Positions 2,514-5,989 of a stretch of DNA of 16,304 bases are shown in pieces. The stretch's first letter is position 1. Each line of letters begins with the position of its first letter. The stretch lies in the UHGV virus genome UHGV-0073938; one strand, 5' to 3'. The DNA comes from a virus. The position numbers and the translations under genes are program-made. Under the pieces are notes generated by a model. The model made no database searches and was not told the origin of the DNA. It saw only the letters and a program-made list of their open reading frames with translations.

Positions 2514-3362
2514 TTACTTTTGTGTTTTTGATTTTCTTTGATAGGTGGAATTTAAATCACCATTTATATTTACTAGAGGATTATTCAATAATGTACTGAT
2601 TTCTGGATTGTTAATTCCAGTAACGCCAAGTTTCTTTACGGACTCATTAAAGTCTTGTAATGATTTTAGACCTACAAGCCCATTAGCAATTGTATTATTT
2701 GTTGCCAAAGGAATGTTTTTCTTATAGGACTCATATTCGTTTTTTAAATTTTTGTGAGTTTTTTCTAGATTTTCTAGTTTAGATGTTGTTTCATCAATAA
2801 CCTTAGATAATTCTAAAATACGAGCTTGTGCTGCGCGCAGTTCTGTCTCCCTCTCTTTCAATTCAGATGTGAGTTGTCCCATTCTGTCTTTTGAAAGAAT
2901 TATTTCCTCTTTCATGTCTTGAATGTTTTTTTCAGCGCCTGTTTTTACTTTTTCGTAAGTAATGTCTTTTTTAGCCAGCAATCTCTGTAGCCGTGTTTCA
3001 CGTTGTATTTTTCTTGCCTTCCGGTGGTTTTCGATTGAGTCATTATTATCAAGAGGCTTTGCTTGCCATACGTTAATGATATTGTTTACCCATGGTAATA
3101 GGCAGCAGATAGTAATTACAGATAAGCATGGATAAAACATAACAGTTTTCCATGTGCTGTTATCTGAGATGTATGAAATTTTATCTATTATATTTGATTT
3201 GCTAAAAAATAGATAAAGAAGTGATTTCCAGTTGAAGGCGCACCAGGACATAACAAAAGCACCAAGCACAGGGTTTTTAGCTCGATGCACGGCAGTATTG
3301 GCAGTAGATGAAAACAGCTCTTTGAACGATTCGAACATACTAATTACCTTAAAGTTTTTCAT
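2514..3362 (-). CDS. hypothetical membrane-anchored coiled-coil protein (cargo gene; candidate exclusion/defence effector)
   Basis: Minus-strand ORF in a low-GC (about 30%) segment, versus about 50% in flanking phage genes. The track start at 3434 is TTG and overlaps a terminator. ATG at 3362 has AAGG 7 nt upstream; ATG at 3338 is an alternative start. Two hydrophobic segments (VLGAFVMSWCAFNWKSLLYLFF; VMFYPCLSVITICCLLPWV) precede about 100 aa of charged heptad-like sequence (KERETELRAAQARILELSKVIDETTSKLENLEK). Confidence 0.6.
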   Translation of the reverse strand: MKNFKVISMFESFKELFSSTANTAVHRAKNPVLGAFVMSWCAFNWKSLLYLFFSKSNIIDKISYISDNSTWKTVMFYPCLSVITICCLLPWVNNIINVWQAKPLDNNDSIENHRKARKIQRETRLQRLLAKKDITYEKVKTGAEKNIQDMKEEIILSKDRMGQLTSELKERETELRAAQARILELSKVIDETTSKLENLEKTHKNLKNEYESYKKNIPLATNNTIANGLVGLKSLQDFNESVKKLGVTGINNPEISTLLNNPLVNINGDLNSTYQRKSKTQK

Positions 3363-3363
3363 G

Positions 3364-3392
3364 ATTATACCTTTAAGGTAATTTGTGGTCAT
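3364..3392 (-). promoter_or_regulatory. possible sigma70-type promoter for the cargo gene
   Basis: Minus strand reads ATGACC (3392-3387), a 17 nt spacer, then TATAAT (3369-3364). A start here would favour the ATG at 3338, which has AAGG 8 nt upstream. Sequence-only guess. Confidence 0.3.
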
Positions 3393-3397
3393 CAGGC

Positions 3398-3421
3398 AAA
3401 AAATGCCCGGACGAACCGGGC
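3398..3421 (-). terminator. intrinsic terminator (minus strand)
   Basis: Minus strand reads GCCCGG-TTCGT-CCGGGC followed by ATTTTTT (hairpin 3405-3421, T-run 3398-3403). Confidence 0.5.
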
Positions 3422-3499
3422 GAACTGGAAGCAATGAGTTATGCCTTCCGTGGCTGTACTGGTTTACAGCATGAAGTCATCGCAATGGCGTCCTGCTGT

Positions 3500-3584: not shown

Positions 3585-3661
3585 TGGCGTGGCATGCAGT
3601 ATTCGAACCTGCGACCAACCGCTTAGAAGGCGGTTGCTCTGTCCAACTGAGCTAATGCCAC
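3585..3661 (-). tRNA. tRNA-Arg (anticodon UCU)
   Basis: Minus strand folds as a cloverleaf by hand: acceptor GTGGCAT/ATGCCAC (7 bp), D-stem GCTC/GAGC, anticodon stem ACCGC/GCGGT with loop CTTCTAA (anticodon TCT), T-loop TTCGAAT, discriminator G and encoded CCA. The fifth T-stem pair is a G-A mismatch. Confidence 0.85.
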
Positions 3662-3960
3662 AACGCTGAGAGCACTTAGCCTGTTAAGGCGCCACACTTT
3701 GTCGCGGCTCCATAAATGCTCTCATCGTTGTACCCTCGTCTCTTCCGAGGCGTCACACCGAATCGCCGGGATGGTGAATCCCCGTGCGCGGAATAAAACC
3801 GCTCGACTTGCACATTCCGGCTACCTGGTTCGTTTGCCCGAGCAAGGGAGGGTGCCCCTTAAACGTATCCAGACCGCTATCGGCGCATGTGCCATACACC
3901 GTACTGCTCAAAATAAAAGCTCACCCCACCTGTTCAATTTAACGACAAGCCAGTCAGGTT
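3662..3960. other. GC-rich ORF-less segment; possible structured RNA, tRNA leader or recombination scar
   Basis: About 300 nt with no convincing ORF on either strand. The only track ORF (3699-3962) lacks an RBS and reads like noncoding translation. Several short GC-rich inverted repeats. No second cloverleaf found by hand. Confidence 0.3.
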
Positions 3961-4075
3961 AATAACCGGAATGAACTCTTTGCTTACCTGAAAGGTAATA
4001 ATTAGTGCGTTAAATGTCAAGTATCTACGATAAATAAATCATATGTGGTTAAATTGGTAATAATTTAATTGCGTA

Positions 4076-4088: not shown

Positions 4089-4295
4089 ATGTGCATGGGT
4101 AGCTCACCATCAGTGCCTGCAACACCAGAAGTTCAGGCAGCACCACAGGAGCAGGATGCCGCCGTTGTTGATGCCCGCGACGAAGAAACTCGTCGCCGTC
4201 GCGCTGCTGCTGGTCGTAGTTCTACGCTGCTTACCGGTTCTCAGGGCGACACATCAACCGCTAATACCAGCGGTAAAACGCTGCTTGGTCAGTAA
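4089..4295 (+). CDS. hypothetical small protein, 68 aa, predicted disordered and charged
   Basis: ATG at 4089 with GGAG 8 nt upstream. Codon usage resembles the neighbouring phage genes. Start context CGGAGTCATTGA is repeated at the portal start. Confidence 0.45.
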   Translation: MCMGSSPSVPATPEVQAAPQEQDAAVVDARDEETRRRRAAAGRSSTLLTGSQGDTSTANTSGKTLLGQ

Positions 4296-4309: not shown

Positions 4310-5989
4310 ATGGCGGAAACAACTAAAGAGCGATTGAACAAACAGTTCGCACAACTTGAAAGCGAGCGTCAGTCGTTCGAGCCGCACTGGCGCGAGTTGA
4401 GTGATTACATCAACCCGCGTGGTTCCCGCTTTCTGACTTCTGAGGTCAACCGTAACGATCGACGCAATACACGTATTATTGATTCGACCGGGACTATGGC
4501 GGCGCGCACTCTCGCCAGCGGCATGATGTCAGGCATCACAAGCCCCGCGCGTCCGTGGTTTCGCCTGGCTACGCCAGATCCTGAAATGATGGATTATGGC
4601 CCTGTTAAGTTGTGGCTTGAGGCGGTGCAGAACCGCATGAACGATATGTTCAATAATTCGAATCTCTATCAGTCGCTGCCGCAGTTATACGGAAGCCTCG
4701 GCACATACAGCACTGGTGCAATGGCAGTGCTGGAGGATGACGAGGACATCATTCGCACAATGCCATTCCCGATAGGCAGTTACTACCTGGCTAACTCACC
4801 TCGTGGCAGTGTGGACACCTGTTTTCGCAAGTTCTCTATGACTGTTCGTCAGCTTGTTCAGGAGTTCGGGCTAAATAACGTCAGCGAATCCGTAAAAAGC
4901 ATGTGGGAAAGCGGAACCTACGAGAAGTGGATTGAAGTGATGCATTCGGTTTACCCGAACATTGACCGCGATACATCGAAGCTGGATAGCAAGAACAAGC
5001 CATTCAAATCGGTTTATTACGAGGTTGGTGGCGATAACGACAAGTTGTTGCGTGAGTCCGGATTCGATGAGTTTCCAATTATGGCTCCGCGCTGGGAAGT
5101 TAACGGCGAAGATGTTTATGGATCATCATGCCCGGGTATGCTGGCGCTTGGACCTGTTAAGGCATTGCAGCTTCTCCAGAAGCGCAAGTCGCAGTTGATT
5201 GATAAAGCCACCAATCCGCCGATGGTTGCTCCGACTTCCCTCAAGAATCAGCGTGCCTCCCTTCTTCCTGGCGACATCACGTATATCGATCAGATTACTG
5301 GTCAGGATGGTTTCAGGCCTGCTTATCTGGTTAACCCCAGTACAGCAGATTTGGTGGCAGACATTCAGGACACCCGTCAAATCATTAACAGCGCCTACTT
5401 TGTCGATCTGTTCATGATGTTGCAGAACATCAATACCCGCTCGATGCCTGTTGAAGCGGTGATCGAAATGAAAGAAGAAAAACTTCTGATGTTGGGGCCG
5501 GTTCTGGAGCGTCTGAACGACGAATGTCTTAATCCTCTCATTGATCGCGCTTTCTCGATGATGGTGCGTAAAAACATGCTGCCGCCACCGCCTGACGCGA
5601 TGGAAGGTATGCCCCTGAAGGTCGAATACATTTCCGTCATGGCTCAGGCGCAGAAGTCTATCGGCCTGTCCAGTCTGGCGTCTACGGTCAACTTCATTGG
5701 TCAACTTGCGCAAGCGAAACCAGAAGCTCTCGACAAACTCAACGTTGATCAGGCGATCGATGCATTCGCTGATATGTCCGGAGTGTCTCCAACCGTCATT
5801 GTTCCGCAGGAACAGGTTGAGCAGGCTCGCCAGCAACGGGCACAGCAACAACAGCAGCAACAAATGATGGCGATGGGGATGGCGGCGGCACAGGGTGCCA
5901 AGACGCTAAGCGAAGCTAAAACTTCGGATCCGAGTGTTTTGTCAGCTATGGCGAATGCAGTTAGTGGTCAGGGTGGGCAATCACAATGA
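4310..5989 (+). CDS. portal protein
   Basis: 559 aa ORF as the first large gene after the terminase pair and before scaffold-like and capsid genes. GGAG-type RBS. Gln-rich C-terminal tail. Stop overlaps the next start (ATGA at 5986-5989). Call is by size and position; no diagnostic motif verified. Confidence 0.75.
   Translation: MAETTKERLNKQFAQLESERQSFEPHWRELSDYINPRGSRFLTSEVNRNDRRNTRIIDSTGTMAARTLASGMMSGITSPARPWFRLATPDPEMMDYGPVKLWLEAVQNRMNDMFNNSNLYQSLPQLYGSLGTYSTGAMAVLEDDEDIIRTMPFPIGSYYLANSPRGSVDTCFRKFSMTVRQLVQEFGLNNVSESVKSMWESGTYEKWIEVMHSVYPNIDRDTSKLDSKNKPFKSVYYEVGGDNDKLLRESGFDEFPIMAPRWEVNGEDVYGSSCPGMLALGPVKALQLLQKRKSQLIDKATNPPMVAPTSLKNQRASLLPGDITYIDQITGQDGFRPAYLVNPSTADLVADIQDTRQIINSAYFVDLFMMLQNINTRSMPVEAVIEMKEEKLLMLGPVLERLNDECLNPLIDRAFSMMVRKNMLPPPPDAMEGMPLKVEYISVMAQAQKSIGLSSLASTVNFIGQLAQAKPEALDKLNVDQAIDAFADMSGVSPTVIVPQEQVEQARQQRAQQQQQQQMMAMGMAAAQGAKTLSEAKTSDPSVLSAMANAVSGQGGQSQ

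Follow-up and report, generated by a model that had tools for sequence, protein, structure and literature searches.

What is a lone gene, transcribed against its neighbours, doing between the packaging and head genes of a prophage? The question is raised by the minus-strand gene within positions 2514 to 3362 of UHGV virus genome UHGV-0073938, a stretch of 16,304 nucleotides (hereafter, the window) that represents the packaging and head-tail part of an Escherichia coli prophage of the phiV10/epsilon15 type (Uetakevirus). In the initial annotation, its product was described as a membrane-anchored coiled-coil protein and as a candidate superinfection exclusion or abortive-infection (Abi) effector. 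The comparisons reported here show that the gene is real and under selection and that it forms an autonomous, horizontally mobile cassette of one gene, whose promoter is conserved and whose product is modular. We infer that this product is a hairpin protein of the inner membrane, in which a coiled-coil stalk on the cytoplasmic side ends in an exchangeable tail. A role in exclusion or abortive infection, in phage-phage conflict at the inner membrane, is the leading candidate, which we hold to be possible rather than probable; its target, its effector action and the direction of its effect (defence or counter-defence) we can only infer.

The gene and its family

The gene was found to be real on three grounds, namely more than 140 close homologues, a full-length match to a PHROG profile, and a ratio of nonsynonymous to synonymous substitution rates (dN/dS) of 0.03-0.25 in the N-terminal domain (N-terminal 150 residues), which indicates purifying selection. 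The word-indexed search returned 142 proteins, all labelled hypothetical, from Escherichia, Klebsiella, Enterobacter, Citrobacter, Salmonella, Cronobacter, Pluralibacter and other genera. The matching profile was PHROG 4780, annotated as of unknown function (E = 1.3e-121, 406 bits; residues 9-282, numbered from the ATG at 3362, on profile positions 1-269 of 275), and PHROGs 13369 and 35327 are related to the protein. With the exhaustive profile search, at least 281 clusters (50% identity) were recovered at E < 1e-10 and 1706 at E < 1e-3, the latter set being probably in part coiled-coil noise; the named members belong to Enterobacterales and Vibrio. A profile scan of genome contigs with the family alignment gave no confirmed loci. 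Judged by sequence, PHROG 4780 with its relatives is the only family membership that holds.

No enzymatic motif had been recognised in the initial annotation, and the scans against Pfam, NCBIfam and PADLOC agreed, giving no enzymatic domain and only coiled-coil noise (SMC, JetC, LmuB, ATG16 and similar). The best matches in PADLOC-DB v2.0 (LmuB, DruC, PD-Lambda-1 and JetC; E = 1e-4 to 1e-2) covered the coiled-coil residues 105-250 only, and no anti-defence family such as Tad2 (PF11195) was found in the protein with Pfam. A search of PDB sequences with the family profile yielded coiled coils only (E of at least 0.047), and a Foldseek search of the full-length AlphaFold2 (AF2) model against viral structures gave a best E of 1.1. 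When 150 diverse members were scanned with Pfam, no domain was detected on the N-terminal module, and GerE, in two of the 150, was the sole genuine extra domain. Relative P0208 (238 aa, from a Logan contig) has the same N-terminal membrane module, a short coiled coil and a C-terminal helix-turn-helix of the GerE/LuxR type, and resembles a transcription factor that the shared anchor would tether to the membrane. Literature searches with the accession, the PHROG identifier, phiV10 morons and superinfection exclusion, and prophage transmembrane coiled-coil Abi proteins returned nothing on this protein; the phiV10 'moron' paper deals with neaT/oac, not with this gene.

Predicted architecture and topology

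Two residue numberings are used, from the ATG at 3362 (282 aa) or from the ATG at 3338 (274 aa). The two hydrophobic segments noted initially in the first 100 or so residues were recovered, the first (31-54, numbered from 3362) being marginal, with a Kyte-Doolittle maximum of 1.19 (1.6-1.75 for its equivalent in relatives), and the second (69-101, same numbering) clearly transmembrane, with a maximum of 2.02. The charged, heptad-like stretch that had been described next is borne out: residues 96-212 are 41% charged, and the heptad a/d periodicity over residues 100-215 is 0.50 against 0.26 +/- 0.05 in composition-matched shuffles (z = 4.8), being strongest at about 134-205 (all numbered from 3338). 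Asn makes up 18% of the last 62 residues, in keeping with the Asn-rich C-terminus of the same description. The segments of the product, numbered from 3338, are as follows.

3273-3338, minus strand: residues 1-22, N-terminal amphipathic helix up to the near-invariant R19 (AF2 helix 2-20; net charge +1.0), predicted cytoplasmic
3201-3272, minus strand: residues 23-46, transmembrane helix 1 (TM1), with a kink at N36 and the family signature NPxxGAFxxSWxxFNW
3144-3200, minus strand: residues 47-65, short loop with a small helix (AF2 helix 50-60; net charge -0.8), predicted periplasmic
3063-3143, minus strand: residues 66-92, transmembrane helix 2 (TM2), with conserved P70 and P82-W83 (Kyte-Doolittle maximum 2.02; AF2 unbroken helix 63-139)
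2889-3062, minus strand: residues 93-150, conserved basic juxtamembrane stalk, predicted cytoplasmic (KPLDNxDSIEN...TRLQRLxAKxDVTYxKVKTGAEKxIQxMKE; predicted local distance difference test score (pLDDT) 87-95)
2715-2888, minus strand: residues 151-208, hypervariable heptad coiled coil (heptad score 0.55-0.78, z = 4.8; pLDDT 91-96)
2517-2714, minus strand: residues 209-274, hypervariable Asn-rich tail of low predicted order, containing NNPEISTLLNNPLVNING and a Lys-rich end

Within TM1, P23, F28, W32, N36 and W37 are near-invariant among 123 diverse relatives, and at least 90% of the sequences across the superfamily share R19, P23, F28, W32, N36, W37, P70 and P82. Such conservation of the hairpin exceeds what a passive anchor would need, and the conserved polar Asn and aromatic residues of TM1 suggest, by analogy, oligomerisation.

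The full-length AF2 model is all-helical, with a pLDDT of 69 and a predicted template modelling score (pTM) of 0.27; pLDDT reaches 91-96 in the coiled coil (about 140-205) and falls below 50 in the tail. Modelling of residues 1-140 with the 123-sequence alignment gave a pLDDT of 82.7 and an amphipathic helix at 2-20, TM1 at 23-45, a loop helix at 50-60, and TM2 running from 63 unbroken into the stalk to 139. The structural prediction and the heptad statistic (z = 4.8) together support the coiled coil. Over the 123 relatives, the net charge (based on K and R) is +1.0 for the segment preceding TM1, -0.8 for the loop and +2.3 for the segment following TM2 (residues 93-117). From these charge statistics, the models and the relatives, a topology with the N-terminus in, the loop out and the C-terminus in is predicted, which would place stalk and tail in the cytoplasm; the cytoplasmic C-terminus is predicted because P0208, with its helix-turn-helix, must have it there and because of the charge distribution.

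The tails of the window protein (residues 209-274) and of relatives P0146, P0163, P0170 and P0174 repeat short motifs of the form [S/N]P[T/A/E]-h-x-x-h (examples are NNPEISTLLNNPLVNI, SPTVKAINNAINNPTIKSI and, in three copies, NPTLQPDTLKRA), and tails often end in Lys/Asp-rich runs.

Modular evolution

When the protein is compared with an allele of 272 aa, residues 1-120 show 93-96% amino acid identity and residues 121-150 show 83%, after which the identity drops to 43%, 20% and 3%. The synonymous divergence (dS) follows the same course, with 0.09 in codons 1-95, about 1.6 in codons 96-150, and saturation beyond. Because dS jumps too, the C-terminal divergence is attributed mainly to recombination, and the sequences indicate that C-terminal modules are exchanged at several breakpoints and are not merely drifting fast. 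A second comparison, with an allele that is otherwise identical, gave a dS of 0-0.06 for the codons up to 205 and of 0.45 for those of the tail. Across the recombinant alleles, residues 93-150 keep 83-96% identity and a nonsynonymous divergence (dN) of 0.047, despite a dS of up to about 1.6.

Start codon, promoter and operator-like dyad

The initial annotation took the open reading frame (ORF) 2514-3362 (minus strand, ATG, 282 aa), for which the mechanical ORF reaches a TTG at 3434; the gene stands, and its start is most likely a different one. The upstream ATG at 3362 is also used by RefSeq (WP_001555178.1). Translation probably starts at the second ATG, at 3338 (274 aa), and four observations point to this. 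The PHROG 4780 profile, and every relative outside the closest E. coli subgroup, opens with the counterpart of MFESFKE/MLESLKE. The -10 element TATAAT ends 1 nt before the first ATG, so that the transcript cannot include that codon. In other alleles, the position of the first ATG is occupied by CAG, TCAGAAAAAA or a similar non-start. Finally, the second ATG is preceded, at a distance of 8 nt, by a Shine-Dalgarno AAGG. The elements of the cassette, in the order in which they are read, are as follows.

3398-3421, minus strand: intrinsic terminator GCCCGG-TTCGT-CCGGGC with a T-run, found upstream of most alleles, those of lambdoid prophages included
3364-3392, minus strand: predicted sigma-70-type promoter, with -35 ATGACC (3392-3387), a 17-nt spacer and -10 TATAAT (3369-3364)
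3367-3381, either strand: dyad TTACCTTAAAGGTAt (TTACC-N5-GGTAA), which fills the promoter spacer and overlaps the -10
3347-3350, minus strand: Shine-Dalgarno AAGG, read from the sequence, with a purine-rich AAGG/AAGGG at the same place in most alleles
2514-3338, minus strand: preferred coding sequence, 274 aa (MFESFKE...) with the stop codon at 2514-2516

The predicted promoter scores 10 of 12 against the sigma-70 consensus in the promoter scan. The terminator at 3398-3421 would insulate the gene from the tRNA-Arg transcription unit upstream. No downstream terminator is evident, because the end of the gene lies 3 nt from the terL stop codon. A unit made up of a G+C-rich terminator hairpin with a T-run and then ATGAC(C/T)-N5-TTACC-N5-GGTA-nAAT is conserved upstream of family members, and it is kept in the Uetakevirus slot (the interval between terL and the tRNA-Arg gene), in lambdoid prophages and in a Pluralibacter island. 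Two terminator-like hairpins (3541-3506 and 3421-3405) lie between the tRNA-Arg(UCU) gene and the gene studied here.

In the alignment of the promoter spacer across alleles, TACC and GGTA are invariant or nearly so, and the other spacer bases vary. Copies of the dyad (TTACC-N5-GGTAA, one mismatch allowed) were counted, and four were found in the window against 0.29 expected (416-430, 434-448, 3367-3381 and 3984-3998); those at 416 and 434 lie just before the likely terS start and that at 3984 lies upstream of the portal operon. The phiV10 genome (locus L027) has 14 copies against 0.59 expected, with two in the 154-bp repressor/cro-like intergenic region, two just past the repressor gene, and further copies ahead of terS, the portal operon, the tail fibre gene, oac/lysis, the integrase gene and the replication-side genes. 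The dyad overlaps the spacer and the -10 of most transcription units, the repressor/cro intergenic region included. A Cronobacter prophage of the phiV10 type (locus L098) has seven dyads in 17 kb, one of them adjoining an HTH_3 repressor gene. The dyad probably serves as the operator for the master regulator of Uetakevirus, for which the repressor is the simplest candidate. In the lambdoid and island contexts, it occurs only at the promoter of the family gene, and is an orphan there. The terS ORF (370-1044, with TTG at 370, in the mechanical call and in GenBank) has two dyads inside its 5' end, and an in-frame ATG ATG at 448-453 (MMPAEPK...) follows them; terS may actually start at 448-453, and the dyads would then lie in its promoter.

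In phage ZX5, over-expression of the repressor lowers the holin and endolysin transcripts by more than 99.9%, in a paper that defines no operators (PMC9782041). In the searchable literature, that on epsilon15 operators included, no description of the dyad TTACC-N5-GGTAA was found.

A promoter that carries an apparent phage repressor operator does not assure expression in the stable lysogen, and this brings in the main rival explanation. The product could be an early lytic helper or counter-defence protein, switched on when the repressor is absent (on infection or induction), which neutralises a membrane-associated host defence or conditions the cell and leaves the lysogen unprotected. We regard this as unlikely, although the placement of the dyad, in the spacer and -10 here, twice in the repressor/cro region of phiV10 and at most other phage promoters, speaks for it. 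The promoter evidence also holds two points that oppose it, the orphan state of the dyad in lambdoid and island contexts and the case of oac. This gene, the other counter-oriented moron of phiV10, has the same layout of dyad plus -10, yet it is annotated as functional in lysogens (its GenBank record assigns it to superinfection immunity).

The terL/tRNA-Arg slot and its cargo

The neighbouring genes in the window are the following.

370-1044: small terminase gene (terS)
1041-2510: large terminase gene (terL)
3585-3661, minus strand: tRNA-Arg(UCU), which reads AGA, immediately upstream of the gene studied and on the same strand
4089-4295: small conserved ORF
4310-5989: portal gene, followed by further virion genes

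The gene lies between terL and the tRNA-Arg and portal genes, with 3 nt between its end and the terL stop codon, on the strand opposite to terL and portal, and is transcribed against the morphogenesis operon. Its GC content is 34% (31-37% in 300-nt windows), as against about 50% for the rest of the window. The terL-portal backbone was found in about 494 of 5426 complete E. coli genomes. Exactly this cargo is present in 18 of the 521 E. coli genomes that match the slot region, and a family member is detectable at the DNA level in about 62 of these. With its AT-richness, counter-orientation, own predicted promoter and presence in only 18 of some 500 backbone-carrying genomes, the gene is prophage cargo, as the initial annotation had supposed.

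The slot is always occupied by minus-strand cargo. Family alleles of 274, 272, 246 and 201 aa were found in it, and another E. coli prophage carries there a 296-aa protein that belongs to PHROG 13369 and is 32% identical to the window protein. Cargo genes of other kinds are listed below.

2278-2649 of loci L002 and L027 (phiV10), minus strand: Phage_gp49_66 gene
1567-1863 of locus L020 (a sister prophage), minus strand: Tad2-like Thoeris anti-defence gene (PF11195, E = 4.2e-24)
1562-1909 of locus L018, minus strand: gene for a 115-aa repeat protein
1467-2006 of locus L019, minus strand: pair of genes for 60 aa and 93 aa

Because Tad2-like and gp49/66 genes occupy the same slot, membership of the slot is by itself no sign of defence, and the Tad2-like gene of sister prophages lends some weight to a counter-defence role for the present gene. 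These two cargos are nevertheless expressed differently, which counts against that role: they have no promoter of their own, their Shine-Dalgarno sequence follows directly after the terminator T-run, and the arrangement implies expression by read-through from the tRNA-Arg unit.

Viable phages of this type, such as phiV10 and TL-2011b, lack the gene, and phiV10 has no family member at all. That the gene is dispensable is shown by phiV10, whose genome encodes a holin, an endolysin, Rz and Rz1 (the last two at 26127-26609) but not this protein. An own predicted promoter, upstream insulation, a deviant GC content and presence or absence among near-identical genomes together show a self-contained 'moron' cassette, which consists of a terminator, a promoter/operator and a single gene, set in a variable slot.

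The same facts bear on the view that the product is a lysis component (an i-spanin, holin or antiholin-like protein) or a structural protein of the virion, tape-measure-like for instance. A transmembrane segment followed by a coiled coil is superficially like Rz, and PHROG tape-measure profiles did match weakly (best E = 4.6e-6). Those matches, however, comprise only some 80 coiled-coil residues (141-220) of the protein, on profiles 237-1606 positions long. The lysis cassette of this phage type (holin, endolysin, Rz, Rz1) is complete and lies elsewhere, viable members do without the gene, no lipobox occurs in any frame of its strand and no o-spanin is embedded in it, the coiled coil is predicted to be cytoplasmic, transcription opposes the morphogenesis operon, and solitary chromosomal copies stand without phage genes nearby. 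We consider a lysis or virion role extremely improbable. The spanin-like role, which had initially been left open, is effectively ruled out by the phiV10 lysis genes, the missing lipobox and the predicted cytoplasmic coiled coil, and no credible homology to a virion or lysis protein emerged. A spanin/lysis or essential virion role was set aside given the complete phiV10 lysis cassette, the dispensability of the gene and the lack of a lipobox; a tail tape-measure protein was rejected in view of its 274 aa only, its position outside any tail module, the podovirus-type genome and the partial matches.

Family members in other elements

Seventy IMG/VR loci were inspected. In about 60 of them, the family gene is convergent with terL in the Uetakevirus slot, single and counter-oriented, and this placement is held where terL is only 78-93% and portal only 59-84% identical; most of the remaining loci are lambdoid-like genomes, again with single counter-oriented genes. 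A co-oriented family member was seen at one locus only (L095, 7995-8717, plus strand), in a head-morphogenesis module, where it is flanked by a portal-like gene and a putative capsid gene.

Other family members are carried by a Klebsiella lambdoid prophage, by a 111-kb phage-plasmid-like contig (beside ParA) and by a Vibrio island bounded by serine recombinases. Solitary chromosomal copies were found in many Cronobacter isolates, between lacI and a dehydrogenase gene, and in another genome. No conserved partner gene accompanies these copies. One relative adjoins the PADLOC candidate-defence protein PDC-M40B (E = 1e-19), and another a TIR-like protein (E = 1.6e-7). A further relative, of 514 aa, is encoded in a Pantoea P2-like prophage (locus L099, 8001-9545), where it shares the interval between gpA and the portal gene gpQ with no more than a 58-aa ORF. 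This gpA-gpQ hotspot of P2-like phages carries old and tin and is a source of validated anti-phage systems (PMC9122126), and recognised anti-defence genes are rare in P2-like prophages (28 of 1511; PMC13586616). The tail of the 514-aa relative contains alanine/serine-rich repeats (SAMSAAWAAATK...), and at the other end of the same locus (1-1513) a gene for a NACHT/STAND NTPase adjoins the prophage CI repressor gene.

Relatives are encoded in five of 50,697 phage records, and all five appear to be temperate or derived from prophages. The family is thus essentially absent from virulent phages, and this speaks against an early lytic counter-defence role, as do the solitary chromosomal copies and the relative in the P2 gpA-gpQ hotspot, given how seldom P2-like prophages carry anti-defence genes; on the other hand, inhibitors that must keep pace with variable host targets typically have hypervariable binding modules as well.

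The distribution bears as well on a reading that leaves phage conflict aside, in which the protein would be a membrane tether for lysogenic conversion or housekeeping, that is, an inner-membrane scaffold by which some cytoplasmic factor of the host (for cell division, envelope stress, or a transcription factor) is recruited or sequestered. An N-terminal anchor followed by a cytoplasmic coiled coil resembles the host scaffolds EzrA and YhcB. At least one relative has a LuxR/GerE domain in place of the tail, so that the N-terminal module resembles a generic tether or sensor, and solitary chromosomal copies are found among metabolic genes. The family, however, is strongly enriched in temperate phages and variable hotspots, its C-terminal half undergoes extreme recombinational turnover, the low GC content indicates recent transfer, and no host scaffold family was detected by Pfam; we rate such a tether as quite unlikely.

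Comparison with known systems

RexB and the effectors with two transmembrane segments (2TM effectors) of CBASS, Pycsar and retrons couple a constant membrane-inserting module to a cytoplasmic sensing module, and this idea is shared with the protein described here. By analogy, it would work most like SieB-type and 2TM-effector Abi proteins and like membrane-anchored, cytoplasm-facing defences such as SNIPE, and it is a member of none of these groups. It differs from the 2TM effectors in having neither a nucleotide-binding nor a partner sensor protein, and no PADLOC model is matched.

SieB of lambda and P22 (PF14163) is likewise a small prophage accessory protein of the inner membrane, in which a cytoplasmic part comes after two hydrophobic helices at the N-terminus, and it is encoded against the flow of its neighbours, as the present gene is. 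It has neither a coiled coil nor a hypervariable tail, however, and shows no sequence or profile similarity to the protein. The Rz-type i-spanins have an N-terminal membrane anchor and then a charged coiled coil of similar size, but in the present protein the location, the partner gene and the predicted membrane side are all wrong for a spanin, and the phage already has Rz and Rz1.

SNIPE (transmembrane segment, DUF4041 and GIY-YIG) is a membrane-bound nuclease that cuts phage DNA at injection (PMC13190303). An elongated portion of it reaches into the cytoplasm and includes regions diversified for binding phage or host proteins (PMC13190303), features that the present protein would share. SNIPE has DUF4041 and a nuclease, a single transmembrane segment and a periplasmic N-terminus, whereas the protein studied here is predicted to be a two-helix hairpin without an enzymatic domain; no homology between the two was detected with Pfam or PADLOC. 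The morons of HK97/HK022 and P2 are autonomous transcription units inserted between core genes (PMC3573123), and the gene resembles them in its own predicted promoter, upstream terminator, deviant composition, patchy presence and counter-orientation. Moron is a structural class and not a function.

Proposed function

Our tentative proposal is a protein that would need no partner and would exclude superinfecting phages, or abort their infection, from the cytoplasmic side of the inner membrane. Its N-terminus would be cytoplasmic, and the two transmembrane helices, with their invariant Asn, Trp and Pro, would be joined by a short periplasmic loop. TM2 would run into a cytoplasmic stalk made up of a basic juxtamembrane segment, a heptad coiled coil of about 70 residues and the poorly ordered Asn-rich tail. 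The recombining, hypervariable coiled coil and tail would form a specificity module that binds a component of the incoming or replicating phage, and the conserved hairpin would serve as the constant part that does the work; it might oligomerise to perturb the membrane or might obstruct a site of DNA entry or assembly.

Circumstantial support for a role in conflict is provided by the relative in the P2 gpA-gpQ hotspot, by the PDC-M40B and TIR-like neighbours and by the solitary chromosomal copies. The restriction to temperate elements, the modular pattern, which would be that of an arms race, and the precedent of oac point the same way.

Several observations weigh on the other side. No recognisable effector domain was found in the protein, and there is no likeness to any PADLOC (2023) defence model past coiled-coil noise. 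Homology to SieB was tried and rejected (no Pfam match at E <= 1; hhalign probability of 1.4% for the family profile against lambda SieB). There is no convincing signal of dN/dS above 1, and coiled coils diverge fast even without diversifying selection. The full-length AF2 model is only moderate (pLDDT and pTM as given above). A Tad2-like anti-defence gene or a gp49/66 gene occupies the very same slot in sister prophages. The dyad overlaps the -10 and recurs in the repressor/cro intergenic region, and a repressor-like operator could keep the gene silent in the stable lysogen and make it an early lytic gene.

A wider proposal may be outlined, to which we attach little probability. The family would represent a new, widespread class of enzyme-free, single-protein exclusion/Abi factors, in which the variable coiled coil and tail capture a protein of the invader and the hairpin oligomerises to breach or block the inner membrane. 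The Uetakevirus cassette, wired to the repressor operator, would fire on derepression or fresh infection and guard the lytic cycle against competitors, and the escaped copies with an orphan operator would be constitutively on.

If the protein is an exclusion or Abi factor, a sizeable uncatalogued family (at least 281 clusters at 50% identity) is added to the anti-phage repertoire, with an unusually simple design of a membrane hairpin and an exchangeable coiled-coil tail and no enzyme; without a phenotype, the gene is an ordinary hypothetical moron. The natural allele swaps, in which the conserved N-terminal 150 residues are joined to differing tails, are ready-made specificity chimeras. The terL/tRNA-Arg slot of phiV10-like prophages is an accessory exchange point where candidate defence and anti-defence (Tad2-like) cargo are mixed, and the dyad TTACC-N5-GGTAA gives a handle on the regulatory circuit of a little-studied phage group.

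Minor observations on the surrounding sequence

In the AT-rich gene, AGA accounts for 4 of the 11 Arg codons and AGG for one more. An unannotated stretch of about 245 nt (window positions about 3658-3902), for which the Rfam scan gave no match, has copies of about 83% identity in very many E. coli chromosomes. One of these copies lies between yfdP and the XRE-type repressor gene of a lambdoid prophage (locus L026), and a shorter part of the stretch matches plasmids of about 95 kb.

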